Of a stretch of 64,000 bases of DNA, positions 226 through 46,565 are shown in pieces (the first letter of the stretch is position 1; each line of letters opens with the position of its first letter). The translations under genes and the position numbers were made by a program. Source of the DNA: Blasia pusilla (taxonomy: Eukaryota). Under the pieces are notes generated by a model that searched no databases, was not told the DNA's origin, and saw only the letters and a list, made by a program, of their open reading frames with translations. The stretch covers positions 24,428,001 through 24,492,000 of the forward strand of contig CM114271.1 in the NCBI GenBank assembly GCA_050084515.1, given 5' to 3'.

Positions 226-231
226 GGATTG

Positions 232-16779: not shown

Positions 16780-16895
16780 TGTCGCGAATAGCTAAGTCTA
16801 TGATGCCCATGCAAGCATGGACCTAGGAATCGAATCATGATAACAGGTCCAAGGAGGAAAGACCTTGGTGTGACCCATCAAAGTGGCAACCTAGA
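16780..16895. repeat. Dispersed repeat, inverted homolog of 26520-26630
   Basis: GCTAAGTCTATG...AGACCTTGGTGTGACC here; the reverse complement occurs at about 26530-26617. Confidence 0.65.
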
Positions 16896-18389: not shown

Positions 18390-19970
18390 TACCGGATAGA
18401 CTCTCAACCAGCACTTGTGGCAAATGGCCAGTCTGGACTGACCTAACGATCTGTTCAATCTCAGAAATTAAAGATTCCGAATTTAGGGTGAACACAATTC
18501 CACTTCGGAATTCATTTTGGTATCCGTGTGCACTCACTTGTGTTGTGGACTAACCATCCTTAGCAGATCATGGCAACCCAACAGCCAGATCATTGTGATC
18601 CCTGCAGACTTACTGCCTTTTGGTAGTAACTCCCATATATAGAGATGGAAGAAGAAATTTCATGTTTGAAGCACATAGCTGAACATTCATATCTCACCTA
18701 CAAATTCCCCCTCGATACAATAAAAGTTCACTCAATTACAAACTGAACCGTTGAGGGCACTATTGTGATAAACGACAAAAAAGCTCGCACAGACAATCAA
18801 AAAAGTTTCCACTTACCATCCACACCACTTAATACTGACTCAGATTCCAATTTGCACTGATCTGAGGATCAGAAGTTTTCTCTTGGCTACTATATGGAGG
18901 TAGGAATAAGCAAATAGTGGATAAGGGAGCTAACAATCGCTCAATTTCAAGATGACTTCGTTTACATACGGGGACATGTGGTTTAGAAAGAAGTCCTCGA
19001 CTTGCATTTATTGCAAAAAAGCTCAGCAAGAAGAAAAAACGCCCCTCATATTCTTTACTGAACCCCTGCTGAAGACTACTGACTGAGAGGCCCATGTCCG
19101 CTGACTGAAAGATCACACATGGGTAAGTCCAATAACTGGCAGAATAGTTCTGTGAGTTGCCCTAACGTTCCTCAGAATCCTTATACACCCATGATCGGAG
19201 GTAGCATTCGCTAGCTTCAGGATGATATTGAGTTCGTCAGCAATAACCAAAACTGGCCTTCGTGAAAATTAAAAATTAAAAGGGATCAATCTTGGTTCTC
19301 CAATTTCCTTTCTATTTAATACCAATAAAAGGAGGACTACAATACATCATCGACATGTCAGTTGCTCAATCTGAGGTCTACTTCTGACTGGCATACTCGA
19401 TCAGCATGTCCTCATCTGTGAACCAAGAAGAATCTGACGATAACCACAAGCCGATGTACTTACATGTTGGATGTGAGTTCAAACCACATGATGCATTTTG
19501 TCCATCACTAATCCAATCTGGTCGGAAGTTTGACTCTTCATTTCACAGGAAGAAATTCCTGTCCAGTACTTCTCAAGCCCTCACAGTGCCACATCAATCT
19601 GTGGTACATGTGATTATGCCAACCCTGCCATATGTCGTGAATGTAACAGGCACCACAGTATGAAGTTGTAAATGAACATAGTGATGGCGAAGCGCCTGCA
19701 TCTGCGCTGATTCCGCTTGTTGGAAGGGAGTAGGTCTGTTCCTTTGGGAGGGAACTGAATGAAAAGTGTTCCTCATAGACTGAAGTGATGCATCATATAG
19801 GAGCACCATGTTTCATCTGTGAATCTTGTTCTCCCCCCACCCTGGATCCAAATATCACCCTTGAAGACCTCATCAGTGCAGTGGCAGTAATTTTGCAAGT
19901 TTGAGCAAAGTATATGTGGACTGGGCAGCAAAGAAATTACTCATCCCTGCAACCACTGTTGTTGATTTCC

Positions 19971-22866: not shown

Positions 22867-25260
22867 CGTAACCCTGAAGTTCGTATTCCTTCCGACTCTT
22901 CCTCCTCCCGACTCATTGTTTGTTCGAACACCTTTCGTGGGGTCCGTAAGGTACCGAATTCCACCGCAGCCATTTCAGCGCCTCACGCGCCGGCTTCCGA
23001 CGCTCTTCCTCTCACGGGGAGGCACAGCGACGCACGCAGTCCCGTGGTACTTACAACGCAGTCGCCACTTCCGCGACGACGCCGGGGAGGGAACCGCCAT
23101 CCGCGTGTGAGGGATTTTCGTCGACGGTCCTCCACGGGACGACTGAGGAGTCAGGACGCTCCATGAGGACCGGCTCCCATGCGGCCCTGGGTCTCAAGTT
23201 CTCAACGACCGAGCGTGCTGGCAGTCGGGGATGGAGTTGGGAGGTCTCTTGATTGTAATCGGACCCTTTTTATTCAAGCTCTATGTTTCTTTTCTTTCCT
23301 TAAGGAAGTTCGTAGCCACGGACTTCGAGCCCAATTTTTTATTATGTCATATAGGGCAGGTCCCGATCGGGCAAGTTTTGGGTTGCGGACTCCATCATCA
23401 AGATGGCCTCTGCAAGGACTGAAATTTAACGGATCGAAAACTGGTTTTTGGTCCATCCTTGCCGCAAAAATCACGGCGTGGAAATTCCAAAGTCGATTTT
23501 TCTATTGCATACATGCTGTAGTTTGTTTCCGATAAATCTTGTGTGATTGCGGGTGCAATGGCCTGTAAATATCATCACACAAGGACATAGGACTTCCGTG
23601 ACCCATCGTCGCGGTTTGCATGGGGACAAGCCCTTAGATGCCATCCCCATGGAGACCGCTACGCAAGGTCCCATTGATTCTAGGCAGACGGTCATATATT
23701 TGGTCAAGCGAGAAATCCATCCATTGTCAAGCTTGCTCTACCAACGTTTGGCTATGATGGGGCTATGTAACCATATGCAGGAAATTCCTTCATTAGGTAG
23801 CAGCAATTCTTTTTAAAAAAAGAAGGTACAGGCTACAGTCGTTCTATCAAGGAGGGATCGTCCCTATTTTTTTTTGCGTCATAAATTTCTTGGCGTAGAA
23901 GGACCAAATACCGGCCTTTGATCCGTGGAGTGACAACCGTTGACCCTAGATCGGAAGGATCCTGCGACAATATATGGAAGTGATCCATTGGGACCTACTC
24001 TTAGAGTGCGGGCAAGAGAGGGAGGTAGATGCTCACCTCCTTCCGTTTGGATCTATTTTGGACATTCAGGTTAGATTCTTAACTACTTAGTTCTCACCTT
24101 ACATAAAATAAGGGATGTACTGCATAAATACATCAACTTGTAAAATGGAAGAGACCCTATGATGTAGAAACAAGCCATCCTCCTTTTGCAATCAAGGACC
24201 CAAAAGACACCTTGATGCTTACATTTTGTGAATGTGAAGCTCTACTTCTTGAAGTAGTTTGTTCTATTCTACCCTCGTTTCTCAACCCTTTAAACGATGA
24301 TAATTACTGATGTATTACCTGTGAAAGTATCCCAATGACAAGGTCGTTCAATTGTGGCCTACTTTTATTGGGCGCAAACATTTTCCAAAATCCAATTCTT
24401 CTCGGACATCGTGAGCCATTAGATCAAAGTGGATTGGGATAATCCAGCAAGTTGTCACGACTCTAGACCACATATATGGGACTAGGTACTAAGGTCCGTT
24501 TGGTCAAGAAAACCCTTGGGATTGTTGAATTTTGGGTTATTAGGCACAAAAATATTCTAGAAATGTCAATTTTCTTGTGTTGTTTGGAGGAAAAATGTTT
24601 GGTCACAATACACTCATTTTGACAAAATGTTCCCCATTGCCATTAGGACTTCCTTGGTTGAAAAAAGACTCTGTATGCTCCTTATGTCTTATGGCTTATT
24701 TCATGTTTCACGGACGGAACACCTAAAGGTTCTTTTTGTTGGTACTTATAATTTTTCTAGCGATCTTTGATATTTTTTGATGTTGGTGAAGTTAGACTTC
24801 AAGGGTTCTCCTTATTTCTTCGCCCTTGGTCTTTGAGTTCCTTGAGTCTCACTATCCCCCTTCCTTGTACTTTCTTTATGTTTCCCCATGTTCTTTTGTT
24901 CATGTCATGTATTTTCGTTTACTTTAGTACAGTCATGTCTCGTAATAAGATTTGCTTCAAGTAGATTTATGTGGATGTAAAATATTAGGGACCAATAAGA
25001 TTATGTGATCATTTCTTCATTGAACCTTACAAAGCCATCTCTCATTACTTTGGTGATATTATGAAGGGAACTCATTATAGAGATATTTTGTGTTGCAGGA
25101 TCAGAGTAATTAGTTGCAAGCCATCATATAATAGTAGCCTCCCTCTTAAAATGATATCCTCGCAAGTCTTGAGTGGTTTCCTATGTTAGGAGATGAGGGA
25201 TTATGTAAGGATTTGACCTTGTATAGATCTGTTGAGAGCATAGTAATTAGTACCTCAAGA

Positions 25261-25645
25261 CACGTCTTGAACGGTTCCTTAGCTTTGATCTTATGTTGCA
25301 CCAAGCGTATCATGACTTTTCGGTCTAGATCAATTGAGCTTAAAGTATAACTTGAGACCTGGACCAAGATCAAAGCTAAAGAACCGTTCAAGATGTATCA
25401 ACTTTGATACAAGCTTAAAGGGTAACCCGAAACATGGACTAAGATCAAAGCTAAGGAACCGTTCAAGACGCACTCGCTTTGATCTTATGTTGCATAGAAG
25501 CTTGCATTAAACTAATCACGTACAAGTTCTCCTTATTTCTTTGCATCCAAACACACCCATATTAGCCACGATTTGGGTCAACTAACCTTTCATCTCCCGA
25601 GTCCAGGTCTTGAGTTATCCTTAAAGCTTAATTGATCTAGACCAT
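25261..25645. repeat. Cluster of interleaved direct and inverted repeats
   Basis: GTCTTGAACGGTTCCTTAGCTTTGATCTT (from 25264) is inverted at about 25366 and 25441. GGTCTAGATCAATT...AGACCTGGAC (from 25322) is inverted at about 25601-25643. Confidence 0.85.
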
Positions 25646-27899
25646 AGGAAAATACCAACCTAAACCTCACTCCCCAATATGAGCAAATCATTTAAGACTT
25701 AGGATAGATTTCCTTAATAGTCTACGGAACTGAAATGGCGCTAGCACTCTAGACAATCCCAACTACTTAATAGACCTCGATCAAGTCTCTAACTAGGACT
25801 TAATATTTGAGTCATGGGTGAAGGTCTAAGGTTGGTATCCATAAGTGATCCACCTGGACTTGCCTTGGAATCAAAATCCCAATGCTCATCTCTCAATCCA
25901 TCCCATGTCCTTGATTTACCTCCATGATTTATAAGGTTGGATTCAGATTTCAAACACCCTTAGAGACCCTCCCCTTTATATGTAGTTTTAAAGATCTATA
26001 CCCCTTCCTACATCTAAGGAAGTCCTCTTGGGCCGCTCCTAATTGCCTCAACCCACCTATCATTTTGATAATTTGGAAATGGTTTCCATACCTTTGCTCT
26101 TCTATTTTTTCGGATTTTTAGTGCATTAGAATTAGATTCTTATAAGCTTTCTAACACCACCTTATTCATTCCAAATATATCTTAGGTCTAGCCGTTATGA
26201 CCTCAAACATAAAGAATCCCTAGGTTTTTGTCTCCTTGACGTCCAACTCTTATGGGACTTGAGGTCTTCCCAAGTTATGCGCGAGGTTGGGTCTCACTAT
26301 GCATGTGCTAGGTCACATCCCAATCATCTGAGATGCCCATCAAGGCTTGTGTCTCGCTTGTGCAACTCATGTCTCACTCGTGAGAATCAAATGCGCTTTC
26401 ATCCTAGTATGAGCCCACTAGAGTTTTGATGTTCTATGTTGGTGCTCATTTGGTTGTGAGGCGCACGACAAGCATGTTCCGTCATCCACTTTAGTCTTGC
26501 GACTAATCAGTCTAGGTTTTGGATTTGGTAGGTCACACCAAGGTCTCCCTTCCTCTTACCCACACTCGTGACTTGCTTCCCAGGCCCTTGCTAACGTGAA
26601 CGCCATAGACTTAGCTATTTGCAACGACTAGGGCTCTTAATAAGGCAATTCAAATTCCCCCCTCCTTGAAAGGAATTTACTCTTGTCCCAGTCATACTTT
26701 TTCATTTAAAATCAAAGTAAAACTTTCTCATTTCGCCAACTCCACTCAAGATGATACCTAATGTCATTAAGCCATATCCACTCTCCACCATGAAGGAATT
26801 TGGACTCTTATACCCTAGATTCTACCAATTCTTAGAGGAAGGAGTGGTTCCAAGCCTCAACATGAAAAGGAAAAAAGAGCCATCTCCTCATCTTATATAC
26901 CCTTGGGGAGAGCAAAAATTAACACCCCTACTAGCGTAATTCAAATGTTCCTTTGCGTGGTGCACACATCAGTCCTCACTAGATATGAGTCATTTTAAAT
27001 TCTCTCCAACATGGGTGACAATAAAGGTAGTGTAAGGTCTGACTAATGCATCATCGTGTTATACATATCCAACACGTATTTTTTTTTAAATAGGCGTTGT
27101 ACTCAATGTAGCAAAATTGTAGAGTTGCAAAGAGACAATAGAAGAAGCACCAATTGCTTTAGTGACTAACATAGATTTCATCAAATTTTGATGGAGGTGG
27201 ATGGTGTGGATATTATGGCCCATAATTTTCCCAAGTATATTTATGACAAGGTGTGATGTACTTATGGACACAATCAACTGGTGCATGGATGTTTCTTTTG
27301 GGGGACAAAGATCAATGCTCTAGAAAGTGTTTTTCATGGAGCAAGAAGGCATGTCCTCTCACCCTTAACATCCCTTCCATGTATTTTAAATGTTGGTGGT
27401 ACTTCATAGATGCCAAAAAAATTGTGTTTTTTGACGAATCATATGAGAGAAAATAGATCATATAAGCACACTAGCAAAGAACATGACCTTCATGCAATTA
27501 TTGTTGATTTTCTAAAAGAAGTAAAAGAAGTAAAAGATGTGAGAGAAGCTTGTATGAAGCAGGGGCCACAGTGAAAGTGGTGGTGGCCCAAACGGAGAAA
27601 TTTTATCAACTTATCTCAGAAGGTTATTAGGGTACTCATAATATTGTTGAATAATGTTATGTTTGCAAATAGTTAATCGGATCAGTTTTATGACATTGCC
27701 ATCCCCAAGACTGGTTTTAGGGATTCTCAACTTTGAAGGTTTGTAAATGAAGGATTTTGTTAGAGTCGACACCTATCTTCTAGGATATATTTGGCATCCG
27801 ATGCTATATTCAATAGGAATGACGCTAAACATACTTGTAGAGACCACTTATCGTGTGCATACACATTTTTAATCACATCTACACAACAAACATCATCGA

Positions 27900-30800
27900 T
27901 CTTCCCAAAACACATATACATACAAAAAACTACTCATGCATGTACATCAAGACCACATTGTCACCCCCCTAAGTGACCCTTGGGTCTCCTTAATCTAAGT
28001 TGCACACATCATATCAACATGACACGCTCTACTTCTCTATACACATTTGGAATATAACCATCATCCTTGAGGATTCACATCAGGAGGAGGGGTTGAGAAA
28101 TAATATGTGATATCTTTTAGAACAACCATCACACACCAACATGGTGGATGTACTCCTTGCATATCCTCACAACATACATATCAAGCCCATATGTACCTTT
28201 ACCTCGAATCCACCTCGTCATATGGCATGATAAGACTCATGGTGCGATCTCATCTCTCTTAACATAGAGGTAGTGATGCATATGTATGTCAACCTACAAC
28301 ACCACACCTAACCAAATCAAAGTAAAAATGGCTCATACGGCTAACTCTGCTCGTGAATCAACATACACATATCAAGCCATATCTACCCTATACCAAGAGG
28401 AAACCTGGAATTTGGCACTTCAACTCCTAGCAAACCCTAAAACATAAAAATTATCCAAAGGCTTGGCACAAAAAATATTTCCTCTACAAGCTATTTCTCT
28501 CGCCTATATGCCCATGGGAAGAGCCAAAATATCTTACCCCAAAAATAGCCAAAAATCAATAACATGCGTGCAAGGGTTATTGGGTGATCGTTGACTCAAT
28601 CAATGCATCACTTGATCCAAAATGGCAAAAGAGAGGGATTTTCCTAAATGAAAATCTTGATGCAACGGAGGTGTTTCCAACCTCATCCGACACCTCAAGA
28701 ATAATTTATGCATGGAAAATGTGTAGACTCTCTTTATCGTTGACACGGTAGAATTCTACCTATTGACTAACTAAGATATGACACGCTATTGCATCTTGCT
28801 TGCCCAGATGATAGTTGTCATTCAAAAGTGGCCATGAGAACTAGAGAGTATCAAAATTTGTGGAAGTAGCTAAAAGATAGTGAGAGCCAATTTATTAAAA
28901 CTCAAGGTATCTATGTAGAATATGTGCCCAAAACTAGGAACATTTCATAAATTTCCCATACTTTAGGACCTATACAATCTAGCATTTACAAGTTAAGAAT
29001 TCCCACCAGAGATTTAGTTGTACATCAACTTTCATCTTTGCCTTCCGAGGACACTCTAAGCCCACTCAATGCATCCTTAAAGAACCTCTCATTTCCTTGA
29101 GGTTGATTTTAGCATGGCCAATATATATTCTACCCAATGCCTATGCCCACACTATGCTAAAATCATGCCTTGAAAATCCCAATTTGATCAAGCGATCTTC
29201 TCTTTTAGAGTTGACATTGATGTTTCTTTGTTCAAGAACATCTACATACTTGATATTCTAGCCACGGTATTTTCCTTGAGTTGAATCTTGTCTTCCCCAC
29301 ACATTTAATGCAAAACATCCTCTAGTCTCACCTCCAAATGATTCATTCACAATTGGATGATTCTCTCATCAAGCAGACATTCCTCTTCTATGATTGTCAT
29401 GTCCTCCTCCTCAGGAAATTTTTTTCATTTTGAGTCCCATCCTGAAATTACTAAGTGACAAAGTCACAAGCATTTTACTACTCACCCAATTACCATAAGG
29501 AAAAATGCCATTATACTTGATAATTTTCCAATATCTTGCTTAATGCAATAATATTATCTAAGAATCCAACCATAATGATTATCCATCGATTATTATTATA
29601 GTTTGAGGGCCTATTCGTAGGCACCATATGCAATAAGCCACCAACCTATCATTTTTTTCGATCATAAAAATATCTTCCTCAAATTGAAGAGTAGTCGTTT
29701 AGGGCACTTCCTGTTCTCTAAATGGCACGCATGGACACCAACTACCTTTAGCACAAAGGGAATAATGGATTTGACATAGAATTGCTGGAAATATAAATAG
29801 TCTCTTAAAAATGGTAGAGTCTAGGTCCCAAATATCCCAAGGAGTGATGGTAGGGTCCTCCTTCACCACCTGAATGAATGTTGGAATCACGTAGAAGACA
29901 ACTCGTACGCCCCCATTTATCCAATCCGGACATATTTTCTTGGATCTCCAAGCAAGAAAGTAGGTTGTTTGCTTTATGTAATTTTTTGGAAGAACATTTA
30001 CAAGCCTAACCACGTAGATGTTGGTCAACATTGATTTACATCCTTGTCTCCTAAAGTCATAGGAATCCTCTTGGATTTTTGGGTACGTAGGACCCCTTAA
30101 TGTATGAATGTGACACAAACATGTGTGCTTCAAGTTGGACACAATTATCTCCCATCATCACAGTTCTTTTGGTGCTAGCAATGTACAATTCACAACTATG
30201 CTCTATATTGGGCCCTTCTTGGCCCGACCTTTTCTAGATACATGTACATAGCAAACTAACAACTTGCTCCATTTTTTGGAGTAAAGAATTTCCTTCTTTC
30301 AATCGGTGCTTGCCCAAGCTTCTCTACATAGAAATGTCCCAATGTACCAATGGTTATATGAATATATTGAATATTGGTTGGTTAATCCTCTTATGATGTT
30401 ATGGATCCCATGGTGCCTCTATTTCAAAAGGAACCAGTGGTGTTCTAGGGTCCGGAACATGTTGAATTTTACCCCAAAAAATCTCCCATCTGAATGTGTA
30501 CGACTTCTTGGCAAAAGCTCTTGTCTCTTTCTTCCCTAAAAAAAATTTTAAATAGTTTCCAATGGATACCCATTGGGTTTAGGCATAGGTGCATATTCAT
30601 TGAAATGAGTTCTTGTTCATGGCTCCACGTGATTAAGCACACATGCATATTCATTAAGATTAGCCACCATTCAATGGTCATAGTGTTTAGGTGTTAATGA
30701 TTATTGAGAGTCACAAATCTCCCTTGAATGCTCTCTCCTTATTAAGGCGTTGCAAAAATATGTATATTCACTATGATTGGCCGTTGCTATGGAATCTTTA

Positions 30801-32200: not shown

Positions 32201-32665
32201 GGAGAAACTTTGTTTTATACTACCATCATAAATCTTCTTAATACAATAGATATCTATGAGAACATTTGTTGTTATGTGTAATAGATCCTATGTAACATGA
32301 TAAGCATTAAGCTTTCCAAAGGGCGATCATAAGGTTGAAGGTTCCTAAGGGGGTCTACTTAAACAAATGTCTCAAGTTTCATACGGAGAAGGAAGAAAGA
32401 ACCATTTATACTATAACTAGAGTATATCCTAATGCCCTATGCCTTTCCCAAGATTAATCACAATTTTCAAAGAACGTTTTCTTGATGTCCATAGTAAGAA
32501 AAATGTGTTCTTGCTGCTCAAGTATCATGTTTCAATCATACTAGAATTTGAAATTTAAGAAAGGGTTCTTCCATAATATTTTCTAATGTAGAGCATGTGC
32601 CTTACATGAGATTGATCATGCTTCATATAAATTATTTAAAAATAAATAAATTTATTGTTACCCGT

Positions 32666-33998
32666 TGTCGTATAGTAAAATCAACCAGTGTGTAAACTCC
32701 TTCCTCATTAAGTGTTAGATAGAGTTTTATTAGTATTAAGTAAATTGGCTTAGAAAAAGAAAATTCTTGTGTTTAAACCTCTTTATGGTGCCTCTTTTAT
32801 GCGGGCCCAACTTTAGGAAAATAGGTAATAAATAAAAGATGACTTTATAAAAGTAAAATAGTGAGGTTGCGGGCCCAACTTTAGAAAAAAGAGATAATAA
32901 ATAAAATATGACTTTATAAAAGTAAAGTAGTTGCTTTAATGAAAAGCAAAAGTAATTTTGGTTGGTGGCTAGGGTAGTTGGGGTAATTTGGAAAATATCG
33001 AGTGGGTAAAAGAGGATATTTTGGAAGAGATAAGAGGAAATCTACTTGTGTCAAAATATGATTGGCTAAGCCTTGAGAGGAAGCCATGTGGCACAAGATA
33101 AGATTAGCTCTATTTCGTACTCTTGTGGATCCCTTGTAAGTATATAAAGAGGAGGGACCTTAAAGGGTTCATCACCTTCTATTCCACATCTTGAGTCTTT
33201 CATGTCACTCTTGAGTGTATGACTTTGGGATTTCTTGCTCTTTCAATGTGAGTGGATCACCCCTCTTGGGTGAGTAACTTGACCATGATCTATTCTTCGA
33301 GAGGTTTCTAGAGTGTGGTGTGTGTGTGTGGAGATGAGAGGTTTTTCACCTTAGAGGAGTTTAGTAATACTAAAATAGTGAATTTTTTGGCTTGTTACTT
33401 TCCCAATGAGAGTGGATTACCCCTCTTCGGAGAATAACTCCGCCAAAACCCATTGTTGAGGAGAGTAGAGAATGTCTGTCAAGCATGGATAGGGATGGAG
33501 CACGAGTTGTGCTCGACTTTCCTTTCCTTAATCCATACCTTACTCTTTGTAGATAGGCACTGGTTCACTCGCTATTTAGTTTATCACTTTGGGGAGGCGT
33601 TCATGAACCAGGTTATTCAATCTCCAACTCCGGTGATCCTTCTTATGGTCACATATGGAAGGACATGGGATTGTACTTTGTATGTCCTTATATAGCAATC
33701 CATGGACGTCAATAGGCCTGCTCAAGTAGGGTTTAATACTAATTGTGCTATCTTCCTCGTTTACAAGCGTAAAATAGTTTATAGGGATTTTATAGTTAGG
33801 AATTTTGGGGTCCGATGTTACGAAGAAGTGATCGCCTCGGCACTTCCATTTGTGATACCTGTCATGAGAGAATGGAGAGTATACATAATAATTTTATATT
33901 GAAAAAGAAGATCTTCTCAGAGAATTCATCTTGCATCGACCACGTCTGCCGCAGCTAGAAGGCCTGCCCTTACTCGAAGAAAGGTTCTCGACACGACA
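32666..33998 (+). repeat. 5' LTR of gypsy family A
   Basis: TGTCGT...ACGACA terminal inverted ends. TATA-like TATATAAA at 33141. Matches 39935-40273 and the reverse complement of 1-1205. Confidence 0.93.
33702..33902 (+). CDS. LTR-encoded 66-aa small protein (ORF-b), copy 2
   Basis: Intact ATG-to-TGA ORF. 37 of 66 residues identical to the family B LTR homolog, and 18 of those 37 use different synonymous codons (manual count). Confidence 0.62.
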   Translation: MDVNRPAQVGFNTNCAIFLVYKRKIVYRDFIVRNFGVRCYEEVIASALPFVIPVMREWRVYIIILY

Positions 33999-34000
33999 AA

Positions 34001-34018
34001 TGATGCTTCCACTGAGAG
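34001..34018 (+). promoter_or_regulatory. Primer binding site, tRNA-Thr-like (degenerate)
   Basis: TGATGCTTCCACTGAGAG lies 2 bp after the LTR end. It resembles TGGTGCTTTCATTGAGAG, the complement of a plant tRNA-Thr 3' end. Confidence 0.65.
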
Positions 34019-34064
34019 ATCTTTGAGGCGGTAGATTGTGTTTGCAAGTTGGATTCTTATCAAG

Positions 34065-36355
34065 ATGACTACTTTTGGTAGTACTTCATCAATGGGAACT
34101 GAGGGAGTTGAGGATCTTCTCCGAACTTTGACAACATTGTTGAGCCAACAAGGAGGAGTTCACATAGGAGAGCAAAGATCAACAAGGGCTCTTCAAGCGA
34201 TTGTAAAGAAGTTGGGGAGATTTAATGGGAGGAACATCACCAAGTATGTTCGAGAATACGTCTATGAGATGGAGGTAAATCATGTACCCGAAGGTGATAT
34301 GGTGTCAAGTTTTGAGTTAGTTGTAATACCAGAGATGCGTAGTCAAGTGAAGAAGTTGAGAGCAGAAAATTCGACCTCGTGGGAGGAGTATGAGCAGTTG
34401 CTGAAAGGAGAATTCTTCGATGATGATGTGGATCGAGTGACTAAGAGGAGTTTTTTAGAATGGATAGAGCAACGTCCAGGGAAGGGAATGACTCCAAATT
34501 AATTATTGCGTGAGTTTGAGAAGCGGTTTTTTCAGCTTTCTTCTTCTGGAAGAGCAACTCTAGACTTGAGGAAAACCGAGTTATTCCTTGAGACGGCTGA
34601 CGAGAATTTGGAGGACAAGCTTTTCATAATGTTGGCGGACAAGACCGAAGAAGGAGGTGTCAGCACTAATTGGAAGAAAGTGGAAGAAGCTGTTTCTATC
34701 CTTACAAAGCAAAATCGAAGTAGAGGTAGAACCGCACTATTTAAGTCGGAGGTATTAATTTCAAATCCATTGCCTAAGCCTGTTTCAACAAAACTTGAAG
34801 ATTCTGCTATAGATGAGTTGGTGAAAGGTTTGAGAGAATTGAGAGTATAAATAGAAAAGTTTAAACTTGATAGGAATCCTAGTGTTGGTGCTCCTTTGAT
34901 AAGTAGGAACTTTGTGAGAAGATGTATATGGTGTGATAGTGTTGAGCATCAACCTCAAGAATGTGAAGAGTTTTCAGAAGCTCTTAGGAATGGAATAGTA
35001 AACTTCAAAGATGAGAAGATTCATTCAACGTAGAATGATATGGCGTTGAATACCAACTTTGGTAGAGGAGGAATTAAAGGCTTAGTGAGAAGTCAAGTAG
35101 GAGTTGCCACTACGACATTAGATTCTGATACCTTTGTAGTAAAAATAGAAGCGCCTATTGTATCTGTAGCTAAAAGTGAATCATTACAATTTCCTCGAGA
35201 AGTGATGATACGAGGAGCAGAGACTATCCGTCATCTGACTGGATCCAATGGAAGTTGGGTGTGTTAAAGCATACCTACCACAAGAGAAACATGTGAGTTG
35301 GCAAGATGCTAGTGTGGAGGAGAAGAGGAGACGCGACAATGGTGGTGCTAATCTCGAGGAAGCTGCAAGAAGAGCAAGGACCGCAAGAAGGAAAGGGCAA
35401 CCAGAGGCGCAACCATCAAGAGAAGAAGGGCCTTCTACATCTGAATCTATGATGGATTCTCAAATGAAAGAAGGTGGAATGAAGGAGAAAGAATTGAGGT
35501 CTTCCCAGAAGACCAAGGGTAAGACTCCTACATACAAGTTGCAGTCTGATATAGAGACAAGCACGAATTTAAAGGAGATTCTTGAGGAGAGGATTAATAT
35601 TTTGGATGCAAAAATAGAGTTTTCTTTGAGGGAAGTCTTGGGCATAGCCAAACGTGACTTTCATGAGTTGATCATAGATATGATCAAAAGAAAAAGGCAG
35701 ATGACTTCAGATATGGTGATGGTGAGGGCATTGGATACTGACATCAAAGAAGAAGAAGATGAAGAGCTTTACCAAGTTTTTGGATAAAAGCTTGACTTAC
35801 AAGGAGAAGAGGCGAGAGTATGAGAAGCCTTGATAAAACAAGGTGAAGAAAGACACAATGGTGAACACTATTCTCAGTCATATTGGGCGCGTGCAACGAC
35901 GGAGGCTAGAGTTCGACTCGGCTCTCTCCAAGAGTCAGTTATGGCTCTCGTTGATCATGGTTCGGAGATCAACATCATGTTGCAAAGTATATACGACAAA
36001 GGGATGTGGCCAATTGATACAGGGCATGGATGGGTAGTACGAGCGGCTAACAACCAAAAAGGTGAACCCTACGGTGCTTGTCCATCCGTCAAAACCCGTA
36101 TCGGAGATGTGTTAATTGAGCAAAATTTCTTTGTTCAGAATGGAGCTGCTTATCCTGTGATTCTTGGGCAACCTTACATCACAACATCTAGTGGAGACCA
36201 AAGTCATGGATGATGGGTCTCATTATGCCCGTATTAGAAGTCAAGATGGAACAAGATCAGTTCAATTCCTTCTTGTACGAGTAGGTCATGAAAGGAATAG
36301 AGAGAAGTTGAGAGATGGTCCTATGAAGGTAGAGAAAGAGTTTTCGGATTTTTAG
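34065..36355 (+). pseudogene. gag-protease ORF of gypsy family A (stops and frameshifts)
   Basis: ORF fragments 34038-34850, 35248-35787, 35830-36213 and 36164-36355. Motifs RFNGRNITKY, zinc knuckle, VDHGSEIN and YPVILGQPY. Confidence 0.88.
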
Positions 36356-39300
36356 TTAGCACTCCTGTAGAGCGGGAATATGGGGATGCAGAGAAAAGAA
36401 AGAGTCTTCCGCTAGGAGAAAGGGAAGAATCATATATGTTTAGGTGTGGGTTTTCTCAATGTTTTTCTCCGTGGTCTAGTAGATTCCAAATGATGAAAGA
36501 AATGAATGAAAAGAAAAAATGTTTTATTAAAAAAAAGGGTTTGTTAAAATGTGAGGGTGTTCTATTAGATGAAGAGTTCATTAGTGGGATGTATGAAGAA
36601 GAGGGTTTTGGAGATATTCTTGAAGAGATGTTTACCCAGATGAGCACCGATTCGCTGGATATAAGTGTGATTACAATTCACTCGCGTGAGTTGCATGAAG
36701 AGATATCAAGGTTCATGGAAGGAGAAAATGAATATGAATCTACGGAGAAGGAAGCGGATGGGCACGGGTTTGAGTCTGACGAACATCCCATGGAAGCACA
36801 AGTGCACACAAAATACAAGAAAGTGGCCTAGAAGGTGAAACCAATGGCTACTCAACTACCACAGGGTTGTGGGAGACAAGTACAACGTGCATCAATGGAG
36901 CCAAGTCTGCGGGATGTCAAGAAGATAGGATACAAGTTCACAGAAGAGACGCTAGATCGTCTGCAAATCGGAGGGGGTGAGTTTCTCACAGAAATTGAAA
37001 GAAAAAGCTTTCGGGAGATGTTAAGGAGACATGGTAAGGCTTTCTCTTTTATTACACAAGAAATTGGTTATGTAGACACGAGTGTGGTGACACCGATGGT
37101 AATTTTCACAGTTCCACATGTGCCTTGGGATTTGAAACCCATACGAGTACCACGAGCTATGATTCCCAAGCTGATTGAGTTATTGAAGGAGAAGATGCAG
37201 ATGGGTATCTTAGAGCCATCTATGGGACCTTACTCGAGTTGATGGTTCACTATGCCGAAGAAATCAAGAGCTCTCCGATTCATTCAAGATATACAACCGA
37301 TAAATAAGGTAACCATTCAAAATATGGGAGCGGGGCCTAGAATAGATGAAGTCGCAGAAGCTTTTGCAGCCCGTGCTATCTATTCTATACGAGATTTGCA
37401 CTCAAGATATGATCAATTCCAATTAGCTAGAGAGAGTAGAGATATTACCACTATGCGCACTCCACTTGGGCTTGTAAGAATGTGCACATTACCTCAAGGA
37501 GCAACAAATTCTGTCGCTCACATGCAGTGTGCAATGAATAAGATCTTGAGAGAGTTCATTCCTGAGAAAACCATTCCTTTTGTAGATGATATCCCTATAA
37601 AGGGATGTGCAATAGAAGATAGGATTGAGAGGGTTGTGAAAGATGGGTGTAGAAAGTTTGTGTCTGATCATATTCGTGATGTGGATGTGATCCTAACAAG
37701 ACTAGAAGAGGTCAATCTTACTCTTTCTGGAGAAAAGTGTAGCTTTGGGGTTCCTCAGATTGTGGTAGTGGGTCATCTTTGTGGAGAGTTTGGCCGAAAA
37801 CCAAATCCAGAAAAAGTAGATGTCATCGAGAGGATACGAGAATGCAAAAACGTCACCAAAGTGAGAAGGTTTTTAGGAGCTTGTGTGTTCTATCAGGTGT
37901 GGATTCCTCATTTTAGTTACATACGTGATCCTTTGTATGAGTTGTTGAGAAAGAAGAAGAAGTTCACTTGGGAGAAGAAGCAAAGAGTGACAATGATGCA
38001 GTTGAAGGAGGCATCGAAGTCGCCACCAGTTCTACGATAAATGAGTTACGAATGCGGAAGACCTATTATCATCATAGTGGACACTAGCCCTATTGCTATC
38101 GGGTGGGAAGTTGGGCAGGATGACGCGGAAGGAAGAAGATTTGCGACAAGGTTTGGAGCTCGTACACTCACGGAACGACAGAGGAGGTACCCTCAGGTAA
38201 AGAGGGAGCTTTGGGGAGTTGTAACTGCAATGAAAGTTGAGAAGGAGTATCTTATGGGAGCCTATGTATTGCTTGAGATTGATTGTCTACCTTGGTTAGA
38301 TATGATTGTGAATTGTACAACTCCAGATATAGCCATGCTACGTTGGATAGCCTACATTAGGTCCTTGAATCCACATTGAAGCATATAGCTGGGAAAGAGA
38401 ACTCAGTAGCTGACATGTTGTCTAGAGTTAGATTTAGTCAAGAAGAAGATATGGAGGCAACTGAGATAGATGAGGATGATGCTCATGTGTGGCAAGTGTT
38501 ATCTCAAGAATGAGGTGGCATAGAGGATGTTCTAGTCTTCAAAGAGAATTTGTATGAGGGCAGGTTAAAAGAAATTGGGTGTTATTTAAGCACTCTGCAA
38601 AGAGACGGAGGGTGGACAGACAAGTTCTTCAAGGAGATCCGGCGCAAGGCGTATGGCTATCTACTACAAGATGGATATCTTTGGAAAAGGCCAAAGAGGA
38701 AAGATGGAATGCCCTTGAAGGTGGTGGATGACAATGGGACAAAAATGCAAGTGCTCAAAGAATTCCACAATTCTTTATGGGCGAGTCTGAGGTACTTGGG
38801 CAACTTTCACCAAGATAAAAGAGAGGTATTGGTGGAAAGGCCTATATAAGGATGTTGAGAGATATGTTGGGTCGTGTGTTGAATGTCAGTTTCAATCAAA
38901 AATCAGGGTGAGAGATGGACTTAAACCCACGTATCCTTTGTCTATTCATCATCAATGGGTTATAGATCTAGTTGTTATGCCACTAGGTCTTTGGGGAATG
39001 CGTTACCTGGTCCTAGCACGAGAAGAGTTGTCCAACTTTGTAGAAGGGAGGGCTTTGCGGGCTAAAACAACAAAGCCTATATGTCGTTTTATTCTAGAGG
39101 ATATTATTACTCGATATGGGAGTGTCGGGAGAATCCATGCAGATAGAGGTGAGTTGAATGCGGAGGAAGCACGAGAGTTCTTCAAGAGATATGGAGTCCA
39201 GTTGAGATTAACAACCTCCATGAATCCTGAGGCAAACGGCAAGAGTGAAAGGGGACATCCGCCAATCATTCAAGCATTGGTAAAGCCGTGTGGAGATCGT

Positions 39301-39840
39301 TATGCTGATTGGCCTAGATTACTTCCATTTGCTTTATGGGCAGATAGAACCACTCATAGCACCCTTACAGGGTCCATGCCTACAGAGTTTATGACAGGTC
39401 AAAAGCCGATAATGCCAGTAGAAGGAGATATATCCACTTGGATGGGTTTGTCGTGGAAAGACGGGCTCGATAGGGAAGAGCTCCTAGCACTTCGAATGCA
39501 GCAGCTAGAGCGGCGAGAAGAAGATATTACATAAGCATTAGTCAAAATGAAGGAAGCAAGGTTGAAAAATAAGGAGCGCTTCGGCAAAACTCATCGACTT
39601 CGGAAGGAGCCGATAAGAGAAGGAGATTGGGTCTTGATGCATGACAACAGCCTCGACAACCAGCATAGTACAATTAAGAAGTTTGCACGTCGTTGGTTTG
39701 GTCCATACGTTGTAGTCTTTGCTTTTGACAATGCCACTTACAAACTACGTGAACTAGATGGCACAATTCTTAAGCTGCCCATTGCAGGAAAAAGGGTCAA
39801 GATTTTCCGTAGACGTGAAGGATTTCTTGATTTTGATTGA
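36346..39840 (+). pseudogene. pol (RT, RNase H, integrase) of gypsy family A
   Basis: VHTKYKKVA, LPQGATNS, FVDD, VDTSPIAIG (RNase H), WVIDLV...ADRGE...NGKSERGH (DDE). In-frame stops at 36829, 37240, 38038 and 39532, plus frameshifts. Confidence 0.93.
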
Positions 39841-39934
39841 ATGTGTCTAGAGGCACAACATAAATAAGTCTATAGCAAGAAGTCTCAATATTTTCGGCAC
39901 ATACCGGAGGATGTGCAGGTTTTGAGGGGGTGAA

Positions 39935-40273
39935 TGTTGTATAGTAAAATCAACCAGTGTGTAAACTCCTTCCTCATTAAATGTTAGATAGAGTTTTATT
40001 AATATTAAATAAATTGGTTTAGAAAAAGAAAATTCTTATGTTTAAACCTCTTTATGGTGCCTCTTTTATGCGCGCCCAACTTTAGGAAAAAAGGTAATAA
40101 ATAAAAGATGACTTTATAAAAGTAAAGTAGTGAGGTTGCGGGCCCAACTTTAGAAAAAGGAGGTAATAAATAAAAGATGACTTTATAAAAGTAAAGTAGT
40201 TGCTTTAATGAAAAGCAAAAGAAATTTGGGCTGGTGGCTAGGATAGTTGGGATAATTTGGAAAATATTGAGTG
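39935..40273 (+). repeat. 3' LTR of gypsy family A (5' part only)
   Basis: Follows the PPT GAGGGGGTGAA. Matches 32666-33004, including the internal duplication, then breaks off. Confidence 0.92.
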
Positions 40274-40980
40274 TGTCAAAGTTTCTTCCATGGTCACTTC
40301 GACTTTCCGCTAGCCCTATACTACCACTTTAATATAAGGTTAAGATATACACCTGCCAATTTTGCACAAGAGAGACTACAAAAGGCAATGTTCACGCAAT
40401 GACTTCATCATAAAACTCTTGGCCAAACTTCCTCACCATAAAATCTCTATATGCTATCTTAGATCGACAAACCACATGGACTATACACTGAGTGTTAAAA
40501 AACACTTGTGGGGGCCTATTCAAATCCATTCCCCATGTTACGTCTTTTAGGATAGATCGATAAGATCTAGTAGAGCGCCTTCGCGAGTAGTGCAAGACAT
40601 GCTCACGAGGTCGAGGACGACATGCTGAGGCCCCGGGAAACCTGAGAGAGCAGGTTTCTCCTTCGTTTCGGCTCATTTGGAGCCATATTGAGTAAATTAC
40701 TATTTTAGGTAAGTACCATTTTGAATACATGATTAACTTTCTATTTTGGGAAGTGGCCCTTGACCTCTTACATTAGGTCAAGATCCAAAGAGATGACTTG
40801 GGATATAGGTTACCATGGAGAGAGCTTGGTAGAAGGGAGGGATATACCTCAAGGAGAGAGAGCTTGAGAGCTCACTCTCTCTTTGTTGAACCTCTTGGCA
40901 TGAGGCGGCGGAACTATGATCCTCCTTGCCTTGTGTGTGTAACCCATGCCTCTCATTAGGAGAGTGGGTTTGGTTTGACA
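40274..40980 (-). mobile_element. Solo-like LTR of a related gypsy family B
   Basis: TGTCAAA...TTTGACA inverted termini. Starts exactly where the family A LTR breaks off. Contains an ORF-b homolog near its 3' end. Confidence 0.75.
40329..40529 (-). pseudogene. ORF-b homolog in the family B LTR (one premature TGA)
   Basis: MDLNRPPQVFFNTQCIVHVVCRSKIAYRDFMVRKFGQEFYDEVIA*TLPFVVSLVQNWQVYILTLY*. Gap-free alignment to 33702-33902. Confidence 0.65.
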
Positions 40981-41895
40981 TGAGAGAAAGTGCGCATCAT
41001 GGAGAGCTTGGTGTGAGATGTGATGTGAGATCTACTTATTTTTACAAAGAGAGAATGAGAGAATGAAGATTTGAGAGCTACGATGGAGGAGCTTGTTGGT
41101 GTTTGTTGTTTGTTGCAGGTTGGAGGACCGTGTTCCGTGCTTCATGGCTCACAAGAGTTCTCATGGGAGTAGGAGCCATTCGTTTCATGTTATTTCTTGT
41201 TGATTGTTCGTTTAGAAGATTGGCGCGCGGAAGCCCTGCCCAAATTTCGGCAGAGATTGAGTATGGGGGCAGGTTGCTCCATGTCGGTGCTCTCGGGAGT
41301 ACCATGTAGCTCTCTAATTTGTTTTTTTAATAGGTTTTAAATTTTTTTTGGAAGAAATTAGCGCAAAAGCGTTGCCAAAATTTATGTAGGAGAAGAGACG
41401 TTGGGATTTACGAGAGTCCCCGTCAGTCTTTATTGGAAGGTCCAATTCAAAATATCTTTTGACGCCGGCATAAATCGTGAAGTTTTGCACGTTGTGCAAA
41501 AAAAAGTGCACAATTTGAAGTTGCGAGCAAGTGATCGAGACAGTGCGATCCAGCCACGAGCCGCACGACACAACAATCGGCGGCGCGTTGCAACTACGGG
41601 TGTCACGACACAGTACTCGATCGTCGTCGAGCGGCTACCAATCACAACATAGCAAAATGAAATAAAATCTCAAACACCATAACTCGAGGTCACTGGCCAT
41701 CACTGGTTGATGATGAAACTGCGATAATGGTGGCGGCCACAACAAAGTACGTGGTGGCGGCGCAGTCAAAGAATCAATGGTCGTTGTGGAAGACCGTCCT
41801 CTCCGTAATGACGGCAATGGCAACAAACGGCGGACAACGGCCGAAAGCAGCTATGAGCAGCGATAGGCGGTGGCGGCGGTCAACAGTCGACAGTG

Positions 41896-42030
41896 GACCG
41901 TTGATGATGTAATGATGACGGTGACGGTTGATCGTTGACAATGACGGTGGACCGTTGATGACGTATCGTTGACGGTGATGGTTGATCGTTGATGGTGATG
42001 GTTGACCGTTGATGACGACTATGACGGTGA
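41896..42030. repeat. Imperfect 54-bp tandem repeat (about 2.5 units)
   Basis: GACCGTTGATGA recurs at 41896, 41950 and 42004. Confidence 0.8.
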
Positions 42031-45000
42031 CGGCCGCCAATGGCACGGCGGCTGGTTTAGGGTTTGAACAATTTTACCCAAAAATTACCTAGCAATGGCA
42101 ATTTTGCAAGATTGACCATAACTTCACTATGGAGCAAAGCGTGTGTATTGCTGATTGTGGAGGGTATGCCGCGGAGTGCCGCATCCCATTATCGAGTGTC
42201 GTGCCGTTCTATAGCCGTTCCATGCCGCACCGTATCGCTGGATCCGCACCGCATATTGAGGAGGCTTGAGCAGCGTCAATATGAGAGGAGTACGACTTTC
42301 TGATTGGAGGGGTTGTCTTCACGACCGAGTTGGGGTAAAGATTTGCAATTGCAAAGGAGCGATATCAAATTTTGTTTAGGTTACCCATTCTGTTCCGTTT
42401 ACCTTGCAAGTGTGAGGGAATTCTTGGTATTGCGCTGTTATTTGGGGATATTGGGTTTTGTGCAGATGTTGAGAGCATCATTGATGTATGGGTTTAGGGG
42501 ACATAGACCTATGTGTGATATCCAGAGTTGAGGGTATGTCCTGTCGATGAGATGATAGGATAGTAGCCGATTGCCGCACCATGCCGCTTGTTGCCGCACA
42601 ACACACGTCTTAGTGAGAGAGTGTAGATTGAGTGCCGCATGTTAGATTGAATGATTGAGTGATTACACGCGAGGTTGAGAGTGATCGTGAGAGAGGGGCA
42701 TGAGGGTCATCACGGCGTCCTTTTAGGACTTTGAGAGGTGAGGTGGTGGACCTGAGAGTAGCTCTAGAGGGTTTACCCAGAGTGGTGCAAGGTTTTGAGG
42801 GTCTCCATGTGAGAGACCACCTCAATCTCTTTTTGTGTCGTCTTCAAACGAGGGGGAGAGTGTAGAGGATTTTGTTAGTGATTCGTAACACACACTAAGT
42901 GGTCCTACCAGTTGGGCGTACGAGATGGATGACCGGGATAGAGGATCACGTAGGTTTTTGGGTGATGGAGGCACGATAGAGTTGCACAACTTCATTGCGG
43001 AGTTTAGGAGTTGGTGTGACTCACAACGGGCTAGGAACTCCAGATAGTTCCACCCGTTTACAGCATGGAATAGAATGGAATGTTCCAGCATCTAGAGGGG
43101 CATTCATGGACGATAACCATGAGTTCTCCCATAGATATGCTCAAGAGATTGAGGCATGGCGACTCTACTATGACCCACACTATGTGTCATGGACGGAGCC
43201 GTTCCCAGATGAGGAGGAGGAGTTAGGAGAAGTTACTTCCTCTTCCACTAGTGATGTTTTAGGAGGGATCACTTGCACTAGAGCAGTTGCACCATCCAGT
43301 CGGGTGCGTCCCATGTTCAACTTTGTGGTTGAGTTCTTTGCTGAGTTGCAAGCGAGCTACCAAGGGGTACGGACGGAGAGGTTGTGGAGCATCCACGACT
43401 TCCAGAGGCACCCGGTGAGAGTTTGCGTGAGGCTTACAGTCGCTTGCATCGGTTGATCAACGTTACTCATGGGGTGACAGAGGCTTAGGCTACCCAGTCA
43501 TTGTACGCGATGTTGGATCGAACCTTGAGGACACGTGTGCGAGAGGGGGTGCTTCTTATGAACACCTCCCCTACGTTGAGAGATGTTCTTAGGACCGTCG
43601 AGAATATAGAGCGCAACATGGCAGAGGAGAGCGTAGCCACCATGGGTTCTGGGCGAGAGCAATCACGATTTCCTGCACCACCAGTGCATCAATGTGGATT
43701 TTGAGATAGGTTTATGGCACCACGAGCTCAAGGAGGATACCGGGAGGCCGTGCCACAGAGACCTCCGCCTTCATATGCCGCTCAACACCAACGGCCTAAG
43801 ATTATTTGTTGGGCATGTGATGGAGCCCATCACAAGCGCGATTTCACTCATCACGGTCATGGATGCGTGCCTCAGCATGGAGGAGGAGTTGGTGCTGCAC
43901 CAGGAGGTTATCAATGTGACTATTGTCACAAGTACGGTCATACACGCACCAAGTATTTCAATTTACACCTTGAGTTACGTCCGGACCGAGGGCCAGAGAG
44001 GGCACTAGAGCGAGTTGTTGGTCCGGGTGAGCCTAGAGGTCGTGCACCAGGTGGTCCCATTGGGGGACGAGGAGGTGGAGTTTCCCGTGGAGGAGGTAGT
44101 GTTGCACCACCTAGATGCGTCGAGGGAGACATTGGGTGTGAGGTTGGGATGGCTGCTTAGATACAACAGCTACAACAGTAGATTACCATTGTGGCACTAA
44201 GGTTATCTAATGTCGGATCGGTGGCATCGACGTCTTAAGGAGTAGCCAGAGATATGGCGGATCCTGGCTGGATGTGCGGGGTTGCCCAGATGGAGGCTGC
44301 CGCAAGTGTTATGTGTGGAGCAGCTGCAGAGTTGGATCCTCAACGAGGGGAAGCCAGGAAACAGACCAGGCTTCCTCAGTCTTTCACGTTATCCGAGGTG
44401 ATGAGGATCCCATCGATGGGTCCTCATCCCCGGAGAGTTCATGATGTTGTTGGTGTGCAGGCACAGAGGGCGATGGGAGAAGCAAGTGTGATGACTCCTA
44501 TTGCTGATGCTCAAGAGGACCATGTGTCGAGCACATTGTTGGGGGCGGCCACAATTGTGTACCGCGCTCCTTTATTTTCTGCTTCCGATGTTATGACGTT
44601 GGAAGGTACGCCCACCAAGGTTTTCCGGTTGGCCGCTACGCTATGTGAGCGTGGAGTTGGAGTTCCTACATCACCTTCAGAGGTGATTGCAAAGGAGGTG
44701 ATGGACCTGCCCTTGGAGCCAATGCTCGAGCCGTCCACATCAGATTCATGGCAAGCTGCAACTGCTAGGATGACGAAGATGCCCACTAGACTCACGATAG
44801 AGTGTGCCATGGTTTCTCCTTGTGTTGTGTTGTTGGATAACTAGGGAGAGGTCTTCAAGTTGGTGAGTCCATGAGGTAGAGCTTTTAGTCCGCAGTCCGT
44901 CTTGTTGGATTTAGGAGCGCAACCCCTTATGTTGGGGAAAGCGGCATTAAGAGGTTTGGGCTTGACAAGGGCCGGAGCATTGTCCATTCAGGATACATAC

Positions 45001-45613: not shown

Positions 45614-46565
45614 GGTATTTGCGTGATAGATCTCTTTGGCAGGATTAGCACTAGTTTAGCTGCTATTTTACAGGCTAAAGTACTCGTGCAGCAATACTTG
45701 TATGTAGAGATTGATGATGTTGCAAGGTGCGCTTCACTTCACCATGTGGCGTAGTTACGCCTCCATTTTCCCAACTTGTTGTCTGCGTCCGTTGTCCAGG
45801 GATACCAGAGTTCCCTACCAAGGGATATTTCATTGTTGGGGGCGTAGGACTTGGAGCGGGTAGGGACCATCAACTTGGTCATTGCTGGTTGGCCGTGTCA
45901 GGGCCAATCAAGTGTTGGACGAGAAAGCGGATTAGCTGACTCTCAATCCAGGTTGTTTTGGGAGATGATGCGGATCTTGGGACATTTACAAGAGCATCAG
46001 TCTCGTTCTTCATCATACATTTTGGACAATATGCCAATTTTGGGCGATTCGAGGTCCCGCGTGGTGACGAGTGTACATCAGGTTCGCGCATGGATCGGCC
46101 CAACAATATTTTTGGATGCGGCAAGTGTAGGTTCACGAGCACATTGCTGGCGTCTTTGGCGGACCAACTTGGTGCCACATGAGGTTTTGCGTAGGGTGTA
46201 TGCAAGAGTGGGGCGTCCCTCCGATTTGTTGGTGTATTCTATTATGGATCCAGGTCGTCAATCACAGGCAGCGAGGCACGATGATCGACCGTCGTTGACT
46301 GTGGTCAACAAGATTGGTATGCCGCAAGCAACCTTTCCCACATTTGTGAGTTTTCCCGCTCCCTATGCATTCAAGGAGGTCGGGCCTGACTTGGTTTGGG
46401 ATGACCAAGTACAACGGTTAGTGGAGCCCAACGCCAATGAGCGAGAGTGAGCGATGGGATTCCCCACAGGAATGAAGGTAGTACCGTCACTATTAAAGTC
46501 ATCACAATGTCATGCTTTGGGTCAGGAAATGGACATGAACTGCTTGACATGGATTTTGAGCTTAG
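45614..46565 (+). pseudogene. DNMT3-like cytosine-5 DNA methyltransferase domain within a retrotransposon polyprotein
   Basis: Single frame with motifs in canonical order: I VIDLFGRISTSL, II YVEID, III RDI, IV NLVIAGWPCQG (Cys at 45896), V GLADSQSRLFWE, VI YILDNM, VIII AHCWRLWRTNL, IX ERE*AMGFP, X ALGQEMDMNCLTWIL. Three in-frame stops (45752, 45845, 46448). Confidence 0.9.

Follow-up and report, generated by a model that had tools for sequence, protein, structure and literature searches.

Within a window of 64,000 nucleotides (nt) of Blasia pusilla (contig CM114271.1 of assembly GCA_050084515.1, positions 24,428,001 to 24,492,000 of the forward strand), a Ty3/gypsy retrotransposon, here called element A, carries a 66-codon open reading frame (ORF) inside its long terminal repeat (LTR). 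Comparison of the copies of this frame showed the signature of a real protein-coding gene, which is unusual for an LTR, as such repeats do not normally encode proteins. The frame belongs to a small, so far unnamed family of proteins of about 66 residues. The explanation that we prefer, with a probability of roughly 0.45, is that the ORF is an element-borne accessory microprotein gene housed in the U5 region of the LTR. A preliminary description of the window, made from the sequence alone, had pointed out the frame; the protein family, its predicted fold, a tandem paralogue, the placement in the LTR by read depth and the sense RNA are new. The frame is present at three places, for which E-values were obtained with a profile built from relatives outside the window only.

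33702 to 33902, + strand: the main ORF, which is the subject of this report; 66 codons, open from ATG to stop; profile E 3.2e-25

25 to 225, - strand: the main ORF in a third LTR copy; intact, 66 codons, identical to 33702-33902 at 194 of 201 nt; profile E 2e-25

40329 to 40529, - strand: copy B of the ORF; same frame, with a TGA at codon 46; profile E 2.9e-18, matching the first 45 residues

All three occurrences of the 201-nt frame had been reported in the preliminary description, including the single premature TGA of the third, and all were located. Over the 201 nt, the family A sequence and copy B are identical at 125 positions, align without gaps and have coinciding start and stop columns, so that the gapless alignment described before was reproduced. 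The two proteins share 37 of 66 residues, 18 of which are specified by different codons; these values are exactly those of the earlier manual count. Of the 28 replacements, 12 have a BLOSUM62 score above 0, in agreement with the remark that many of them are conservative. When an equal number of differences was placed at random, the mean number of identical residues was 22.2 and the maximum was 32, and the observed value of 37 was reached in none of 10000 trials. The resemblance of the two ORFs is far beyond chance, which is excluded as an explanation.

The differences between family A and copy B are distributed over the first, second and third codon positions as 22/15/39 (chi-square p=0.0024). 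In the frame of the ORF, the Nei-Gojobori proportions of nonsynonymous (pN) and synonymous (pS) differences are 0.26 and 0.81, respectively, with the synonymous sites being saturated. For the other five frames, pN ranges from 0.33 to 0.42 and pS from 0.25 to 0.60, and only the ORF frame has a pN far below its pS. Outside the frame, an ungapped comparison gave 59 identical positions in the 200 nt that precede the ATG and 7 in the 47 nt that follow the stop codon. These values are at chance level, and therefore the similarity is bounded by the ATG and the stop codon; the statement that the rest of the two sequences does not align holds true.

A phmmer search of 1.84 billion cluster representatives yielded seven proteins at E ≤ 0.001. 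Five of them have lengths of 66-110 amino acids (aa) and are 39-48% identical to the ORF protein over the full query length. Another one, P0008, is a fused tandem relative of 138 aa with a cluster mate of 144 aa (P0010), each of which contains two such domains, and P0009 was discarded as a low-complexity repeat. A profile search of 5.8 billion clusters added four further relatives, resulting in a total of about ten outside relatives with lengths of 57-144 aa. All of them are nameless, stem from Logan or ENA assemblies and are found on 1-9 contigs each. No phmmer match exceeded 48% identity, and therefore the protein collection does not contain this organism's own copies.

The outside relatives retain the start and the stop position at protein identities of 38-48%. 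Of the 9 single-domain outside relatives, 8 have the methionine of the family start, including those with a called frame that begins further upstream, and in 7 the C-terminal end falls on the same LY/YF/YI position. F11, K24 and P53 are invariant in an alignment of 11 sequences (A3). A wider family profile (A7) found no additional members, and a search for longer proteins detected no fused forms among 4250 candidates, which is weak evidence. Pfam had no family for the window copies, the best E-value among 14 family members being 0.1, and no PDB sequence matched the ORF protein at E ≤ 10. Two scans of JGI metagenome contigs and IMG/VR for the DNA context of the outside relatives found nothing. 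Leads from the ESM Atlas were rejected; the best values, 0.77 for P0001 and 0.79 for P0004, the latter to a Streptophyta cluster, are both below a trustworthy level. A GTDB locus (L001) was likewise judged to be a chance match, because only a motif (YRDFLVRNFG) in a long bacterial ORF matched, with a profile E of 0.046 within this locus.

Structure prediction, one of the checks proposed in the preliminary description, gave a confident fold. AlphaFold2 with the 11-sequence alignment reached a mean predicted local distance difference test (pLDDT) score of 87, and the predicted layout comprises a strand (16-22), two helices (24-35 and 37-45) and two further strands (50-56 and 59-65). The 66-residue protein is thus confidently predicted to have a strand-helix-helix-strand-strand fold. 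This order resembles that of POTRA domains, but an identity as a POTRA domain was rejected because POTRA entries appeared in the Foldseek results at probabilities of only 0.12-0.14. With the predicted fold, Foldseek had no match at E ≤ 0.001 in PDB and BFVD, and the best Z value in a wide VIA-align search was 3.5. The fused protein P0008 folded alone had a pLDDT of 40 and was unusable. The earlier view that the pattern fits selection on a protein is borne out by the codon phase of the differences, by outside relatives with the same start and stop, by the confident fold prediction and by the missing RNA-structure signal (see below).

LTR A carries a second, diverged paralogous ORF, which lies directly 5' of the main ORF and in the same frame, with a TAG and two codons between them.

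232 to 450, - strand: upstream paralogous ORF in the third LTR copy; intact, 72 codons, starting with MD and having LY near its end, like the family

33495 to 33695, + strand: upstream paralogous ORF in the 5' LTR; N-terminal part out of register

The profile used for its detection was built from the 9 outside relatives only. It matches the upstream frame at 235-525 (-) with an E of 4.9e-8 (stop to stop) and at 33438-33692 (+) with an E of 3.5e-5, and an hhalign comparison of the upstream paralogue with the family gave a probability of 94.4% and an E of 9.4e-8. In the 5' LTR, the N-terminus is out of register because 8 nt of the other copy are missing at 33539. The upstream paralogue is 21-28% identical to the single-domain members and 14-15% identical to the halves of P0008, whereas these two halves are 44% identical to each other. 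The large distance of the paralogue from the P0008 halves and the similarity of the halves mean that tandem duplication occurred more than once in the family.

An antisense stretch over both ORFs is also open from stop to stop, with 140 codons at 34-453 (+) and 105 codons at 33579-33893 (-). It was rejected as a coding frame, with a pN of 0.39 close to the pS of 0.38 and two stops in copy B, and it is probably a by-product of the sense frame.

The element that harbors the main ORF has the following parts, including a separate LTR copy at the edge of the window.

32666 to 33998, + strand: 5' LTR of the Ty3/gypsy element A; about 1333 nt, with a firm start and a deduced end

33142 to 33149, + strand: TATA-like box TATATAAA in LTR A, read from the sequence

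34065 to 39837, + strand: gag-pol of element A, with DUF4100 (gag region), RVT_1, RT_RNaseH, Integrase_H2C2 and rve; many stops

39935 to 40281, + strand: truncated 3' LTR of element A, of which 347 nt remain, with a purine-rich tract in front of it; 94.2% identical to 32666-33012

1 to 1206, - strand: third LTR A copy, incomplete at the window edge, which falls on the equivalent of 33926; 93.1% identical to 32868-33926

The Pfam matches are DUF4100 at 35239-35784, RVT_1 at 37243-38037, RT_RNaseH at 38041-38376, and Integrase_H2C2 and rve at 38791-39531; a protease domain was not detected in element A in this Pfam scan. Element A has direct TG...CA repeats, with the CA end being deduced, and the order gag, reverse transcriptase, RNase H, integrase, as is characteristic of Ty3/gypsy elements. 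The start TGTCG is common to the three LTR A copies (TGTCG or TGTTG are seen at LTR starts), and CGACA at 33994-33998 is the inverted complement of the first five bases.

The window alone cannot separate LTR from leader for the ORF, as only part of the 3' LTR is left and the third copy runs into the edge. Public sequencing runs were therefore compared with the region 32500-41300, two with DNA (X1 and X3) and two with RNA (X23 and X24). The summed contig depth of X3 is 4402-6424 over 32794-33969, 701 in 33970-34263 and 165-356 in the internal region. The bin that contains the ORF, 33676-33969, is at the LTR level with a depth of 4402. X1 shows the same drop at the LTR border (from 102097 to 16139), its internal bins being too uneven to be used alone. 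The fall of the X3 depth from 4402 to 701 between adjoining bins places the LTR end, by calculation, near 34000 and, because CGACA mirrors the LTR start, 33998 was taken as the end. The main ORF is located inside the LTR of family A and has the high copy number of this LTR, and it is open in both of the two family A copies that reach this region.

The distance from the TATA-like box to the main ORF downstream of it exceeds 500 nt, and the ORF is followed by 96 nt up to the deduced LTR end and by 162 nt up to the gag ATG at 34065. It would lie in U5 if polyadenylation occurs upstream of it, which is suggested by an RNA depth minimum in the bin 33088-33381 and by X24 fragments that end at 33261. 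Next to the 5' LTR no primer binding site was found; there is no TGG directly after the deduced LTR end, the window has no tRNA gene for comparison and, as a complement of at least 10 nt to the LTR is lacking, self-priming does not apply.

Transcription was assessed with the two stranded RNA runs, which have the same species label, and the reads were pooled over all copies that are at least 90% alike. The gag-pol region of the element served as a control: the first mate of the reads is almost always on the - strand, indicating + strand RNA under the usual library convention. In the ORF bin, the sense depths are 44.5 and 69.2, compared with 7.1 and 4.1 for the other strand, and the first gag bins have values of 34-48. 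Because the sense depth over the ORF is similar to that of the gag bins, the main ORF is part of the sense transcripts of family A. This agrees with the earlier proposal that the ORF lies downstream of the TATA-like box, upstream of gag and within the genomic transcript. Candidate transcription starts, judged by the accumulation of RNA fragment starts, are at 33185 in X24 (9 of a depth of 16) and at 32983 in X23 (34 of 111).

Copy B has a different setting.

40276 to 40536, - strand: orphan block with copy B; about 260 nt, with a TGA at codon 46 and a serine at the invariant-proline codon 53

On its downstream side the block adjoins the truncated 3' LTR A at about 40281, and on its upstream side it adjoins a different, far more abundant repeat, where the X3 depth rises from 372 (40144-40437) to 13640-29647 (40438-41025) and the RNA is mostly from the other strand. 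The window contains neither another copy of B nor an LTR pair or gag-pol attributable to it. At 40536 (119 and 45 reads) and at 40276 (44 reads), sense RNA reads that match B no longer follow the window. As the reads diverge at both block edges, an expressed relative of B that is at least 90% alike and has other flanks must exist elsewhere in the genome. Splicing at the edges was rejected, because 40537-40538 does not read AG on the strand of the RNA. At position 40373, the letter found in all of these RNA reads (42 and 27) encodes proline 53, whereas the window copy has serine. Copy B is the decayed remnant of a diverged member of the family, and it is a block rather than a demonstrated LTR. 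Of the claim that the ORF lies inside the LTRs of two diverged gypsy families, the part on family A is supported by the X3 depth, whereas the part on a different LTR for copy B is not supported.

The copy B frame is open for 81 codons upstream of its ATG (40530-40772, - strand), or 126 codons from stop to stop, and similarity to the family or to Pfam was not found in this stretch. It is probably open by chance, since the block breaks at 40536. The very high-copy repeat at 40537-41025 directly upstream of B is transcribed mainly from the + strand, and many loose ends of DNA and RNA reads occur in it at 40747, 40805, 40842, 40922-40924 and 40981.

The ORF is the second of two tandem in-frame paralogous ORFs carried in the U5 of a Ty3/gypsy LTR, its 5' LTR copy is transcribed in sense as part of a long leader ahead of gag, and in the preferred explanation it would be an additional gene that serves the element. 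The protein would be made from the genomic RNA leader or from an LTR-started transcript, and it would act in trans as a small folded module; the tandem and the fused-tandem forms hint that two modules might cooperate. Selection would keep the gene in replicating lineages, and each copy would decay neutrally once inserted. The protein could have a role in packaging, in the control of translation or in counter-silencing, although an anti-silencing role is speculation. We favor this explanation because of the fixed place in a high-copy LTR, the intactness of both tandem ORFs in one old copy and the sense transcription, and because plant gypsy elements tend to carry extra ORFs (PMC7264820, PMC6317226).

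Several observations weigh against it. Fourteen ATGs are present between the possible transcription start at 33185 and the ATG of the ORF. Plain scanning would therefore seldom arrive at the ORF, which is the most serious difficulty for a translation model. A comparison of the two A copies gave 7 mismatches over the 201 nt of the ORF (3 synonymous, 4 nonsynonymous) and 45 mismatches among the other aligned columns of the LTR before 33495, and the ORF is not clearly better kept. These differences are as expected from neutral decay after insertion and are silent on selection in the replicating lineage. In addition, one of the two family A copies has a disrupted upstream paralogue, copy B contains a premature stop, the link between gene and LTR is shown for one family only, and the 5.8 billion clusters contained only about ten relatives, none of which has a name.

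The main rival explanation, which we regard as possible but rather doubtful, is that a small host gene or a gene of another mobile element, perhaps already in tandem, was captured and is a decaying passenger of the LTR without a role for the element. The protein conservation between A and B would then have been earned in a free-living gene lineage. The position of copy B in no demonstrable LTR, its expressed relative with different flanks on both sides, and the invariant proline in all reads at 40373, where the window copy has serine, are compatible with a capture, as are the disrupted paralogue and the lack of an excess of ORF conservation between the two A copies. The outside relatives, moreover, are on 1-9 contigs each and not on hundreds, as a high-copy LTR might give, but these counts say little for a collection that lacks the organism's own copies. 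Both tandem ORFs are intact at 25-450 (-), the main ORF is intact in two of two A copies, and it has the high copy number of the LTR, whereas transduced genes are usually present in one or a few copies (PMC7264820). An alternative that we consider improbable is a conserved-peptide upstream ORF (uORF), which would be translated only to set in cis the flow of ribosomes to gag, with a peptide that matters inside the ribosome and not as a free protein. As expected for such a uORF, the frame is upstream of gag on the same sense RNA, at a distance of 162 nt from its ATG, and the conservation is at the amino-acid level. However, known peptide uORFs are conserved mainly near the C-terminus and are not known to need a fold, while the present family is conserved over its whole length, has a confidently predicted globular fold and includes proteins of 138-144 aa in which two domains are fused. 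The 14 earlier ATGs would, furthermore, already block scanning.

Strongly disfavored is the possibility that the block is kept as a U5 RNA structure or DNA signal for packaging, dimerisation or integrase attachment, with the open frame being incidental. Signals of this kind are indeed located in the U5 and leader regions of retroelements, and RNAalifold predicted 55 pairs for the ORF block, including 7 with double changes. However, covariation contributes a term of only -2.3, and the folding energy is not better than that of shuffled sequences (z-score 0.44; 134 of 200 shuffles fold at least as well), so that RNA-structure covariation, which had been named in the preliminary description as a potential cause of the conservation, left no signal. 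The concentration of the differences at third codon positions, a pN far below pS in one of the six frames, and the retention of start and stop in relatives at 38-48% protein identity also argue against a non-coding signal.

The main ORF was compared with several known systems. ORF0 of primate LINE-1 elements encodes about 70 residues in the 5' untranslated or promoter region, is present in thousands of copies, runs antisense and is specific to primates. Both are small proteins from the 5' region of a retrotransposon; in contrast to the antisense ORF0 of a non-LTR element, the main ORF is in sense orientation, belongs to an LTR element of a plant-type genome and has relatives that are 38-48% identical. 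Conserved-peptide uORFs of plants and the short ORFs of the caulimovirus 35S leader together with ORF VII are short frames in a long AUG-rich leader that act in cis or have no known product, and caulimoviruses are relatives of Ty3/gypsy elements. The main ORF shares with them the short frame, the long leader and the many AUGs before the main coding region, but its predicted fold, its whole-length conservation and the fused tandems point to a free protein. The superantigen gene sag of mouse mammary tumour virus lies in U3, has about 320 codons and is expressed from the 3' LTR. The main ORF has no homology to sag and differs from it by its 66 codons, its location in U5 and its expected expression from the 5' LTR, and, lying more than 500 nt beyond the TATA-like box (33142-33149), it is not placed in U3 as sag is. 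In the literature, sag is described as an LTR-encoded gene (PMC12548423). A search of the main texts of open-access articles did not turn up any description of a conserved small ORF within the LTR of a plant element, and a search for "DUF4100" returned no papers.

Most similar in position are the extra ORFs of Ogre (presumably the one named "Ogre ORF1"), Retrosat2, RIRE3 and RIRE8, which, like the main ORF, are additional sense ORFs upstream of gag in Ty3/gypsy elements. ORFs of the Ogre/Retrosat2 type are internal and long, in contrast to the main ORF with its 66 codons, its location in U5, its tandem arrangement and its presence in every LTR as well as in solo LTRs. Extra ORFs upstream of gag in Ty3/gypsy elements (eORFs or aORFs) are described as being in sense orientation, lineage-restricted and of unknown function (PMC3485330, PMC6317226, PMC7264820). 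Ogre elements have eORFs (PMC6317226), and the ORF0 of Retrosat2, which is also found upstream of gag in the rice elements RIRE3 and RIRE8, has a nonsynonymous substitution rate (Ka) of 0.26, well below the synonymous rate (Ks) of 1.65 (PMC3485330). In a broader sense, extra ORFs are those present in all or most copies of a family (PMC7264820); the main ORF is open in the two family A copies that extend this far, and its region has LTR-level depth in X3. The cut-off of the eORF survey was 250 codons (PMC6317226). This survey could not have detected the main ORF because LTRs and short frames were skipped, and the main ORF falls outside the eORF definition used there, being a frame inside an LTR with 66 codons (72 for the upstream paralogue) compared with at least 250.

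A wider claim would be that this undescribed family of folded proteins of about 66 residues represents a genuine accessory gene of certain plant Ty3/gypsy elements, located in U5, often in tandem, under purifying selection and acting in trans. We judge this to be somewhat unlikely; the targets may be, for example, the RNA of the element, its particles or the silencing machinery of the host. LTRs are seen as having regulatory functions only, and the extra genes of plant retrotransposons are surveyed without regard to LTRs or to short frames. If an LTR can house a selected gene for a folded microprotein, a class of element-borne genes escapes annotation pipelines. With an accessory gene in U5, every full element and every solo LTR would be a potential expression unit, thousands of solo LTRs would be possible sources of small proteins, and the element would gain a product that could influence element replication or the defence of the host. 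The compact, confidently predicted fold without a known relative is tractable for structure and binding studies.

Further observations concern the LTRs and the layout of element A. A tandem duplication of about 67-68 nt in U3 (32800-32931 and 40069-40200), with a TATAAAAG motif in each unit, is variable between the copies. The third LTR copy is without one of the units (61 gap columns), and joints that omit 68 nt occur in RNA as well as in DNA reads. The 5' LTR is preceded by CCGT (32662-32665), which fits the NCGN target preference reported for the moss clade Phygy (PMC6317226), whereas ACCT, which precedes the third LTR copy, does not fit it. In layout alone, element A, with a short internal region that the polyprotein occupies almost entirely, is reminiscent of the moss and lycophyte clades Phygy and Selgy (PMC6317226).

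The third LTR A copy is inserted into a repeat (repeat C) that is present in two inverted copies, 1204-4622 and 41213-44601, which are 82% identical over about 2.5 kilobases. The copy at 41213-44601 runs on uninterrupted at the point of the LTR A insertion and continues to about 46450. The idea that the copy at 1204-4622 is the internal part of an A-type element was rejected, because the other copy continues past the insertion point and no purine tract precedes the LTR. The repeat C copy from 41213 leads into + strand ORFs, including a 200-codon frame at 45848-46447 with a partial match to C-5 cytosine DNA methylase (PF00145, E 5e-7, profile positions 61-101 only). This may be a mobile element with a methyltransferase fragment or the remnant of a gene.

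The longest open frame in the window has 320 codons (21181-22140, - strand) and lies in a G+C-richer stretch (0.45-0.49); it had no Pfam match at E ≤ 1. Remains of other mobile elements are present as well, including a piece of a Ty1/copia reverse transcriptase at 47737-48408 on the - strand (RVT_2, E 2.4e-18). Also on the - strand, 56657-57895 matches DUF4218 (E 1.4e-21) and, weakly, DUF4216, a pair typical of CACTA-type transposases.

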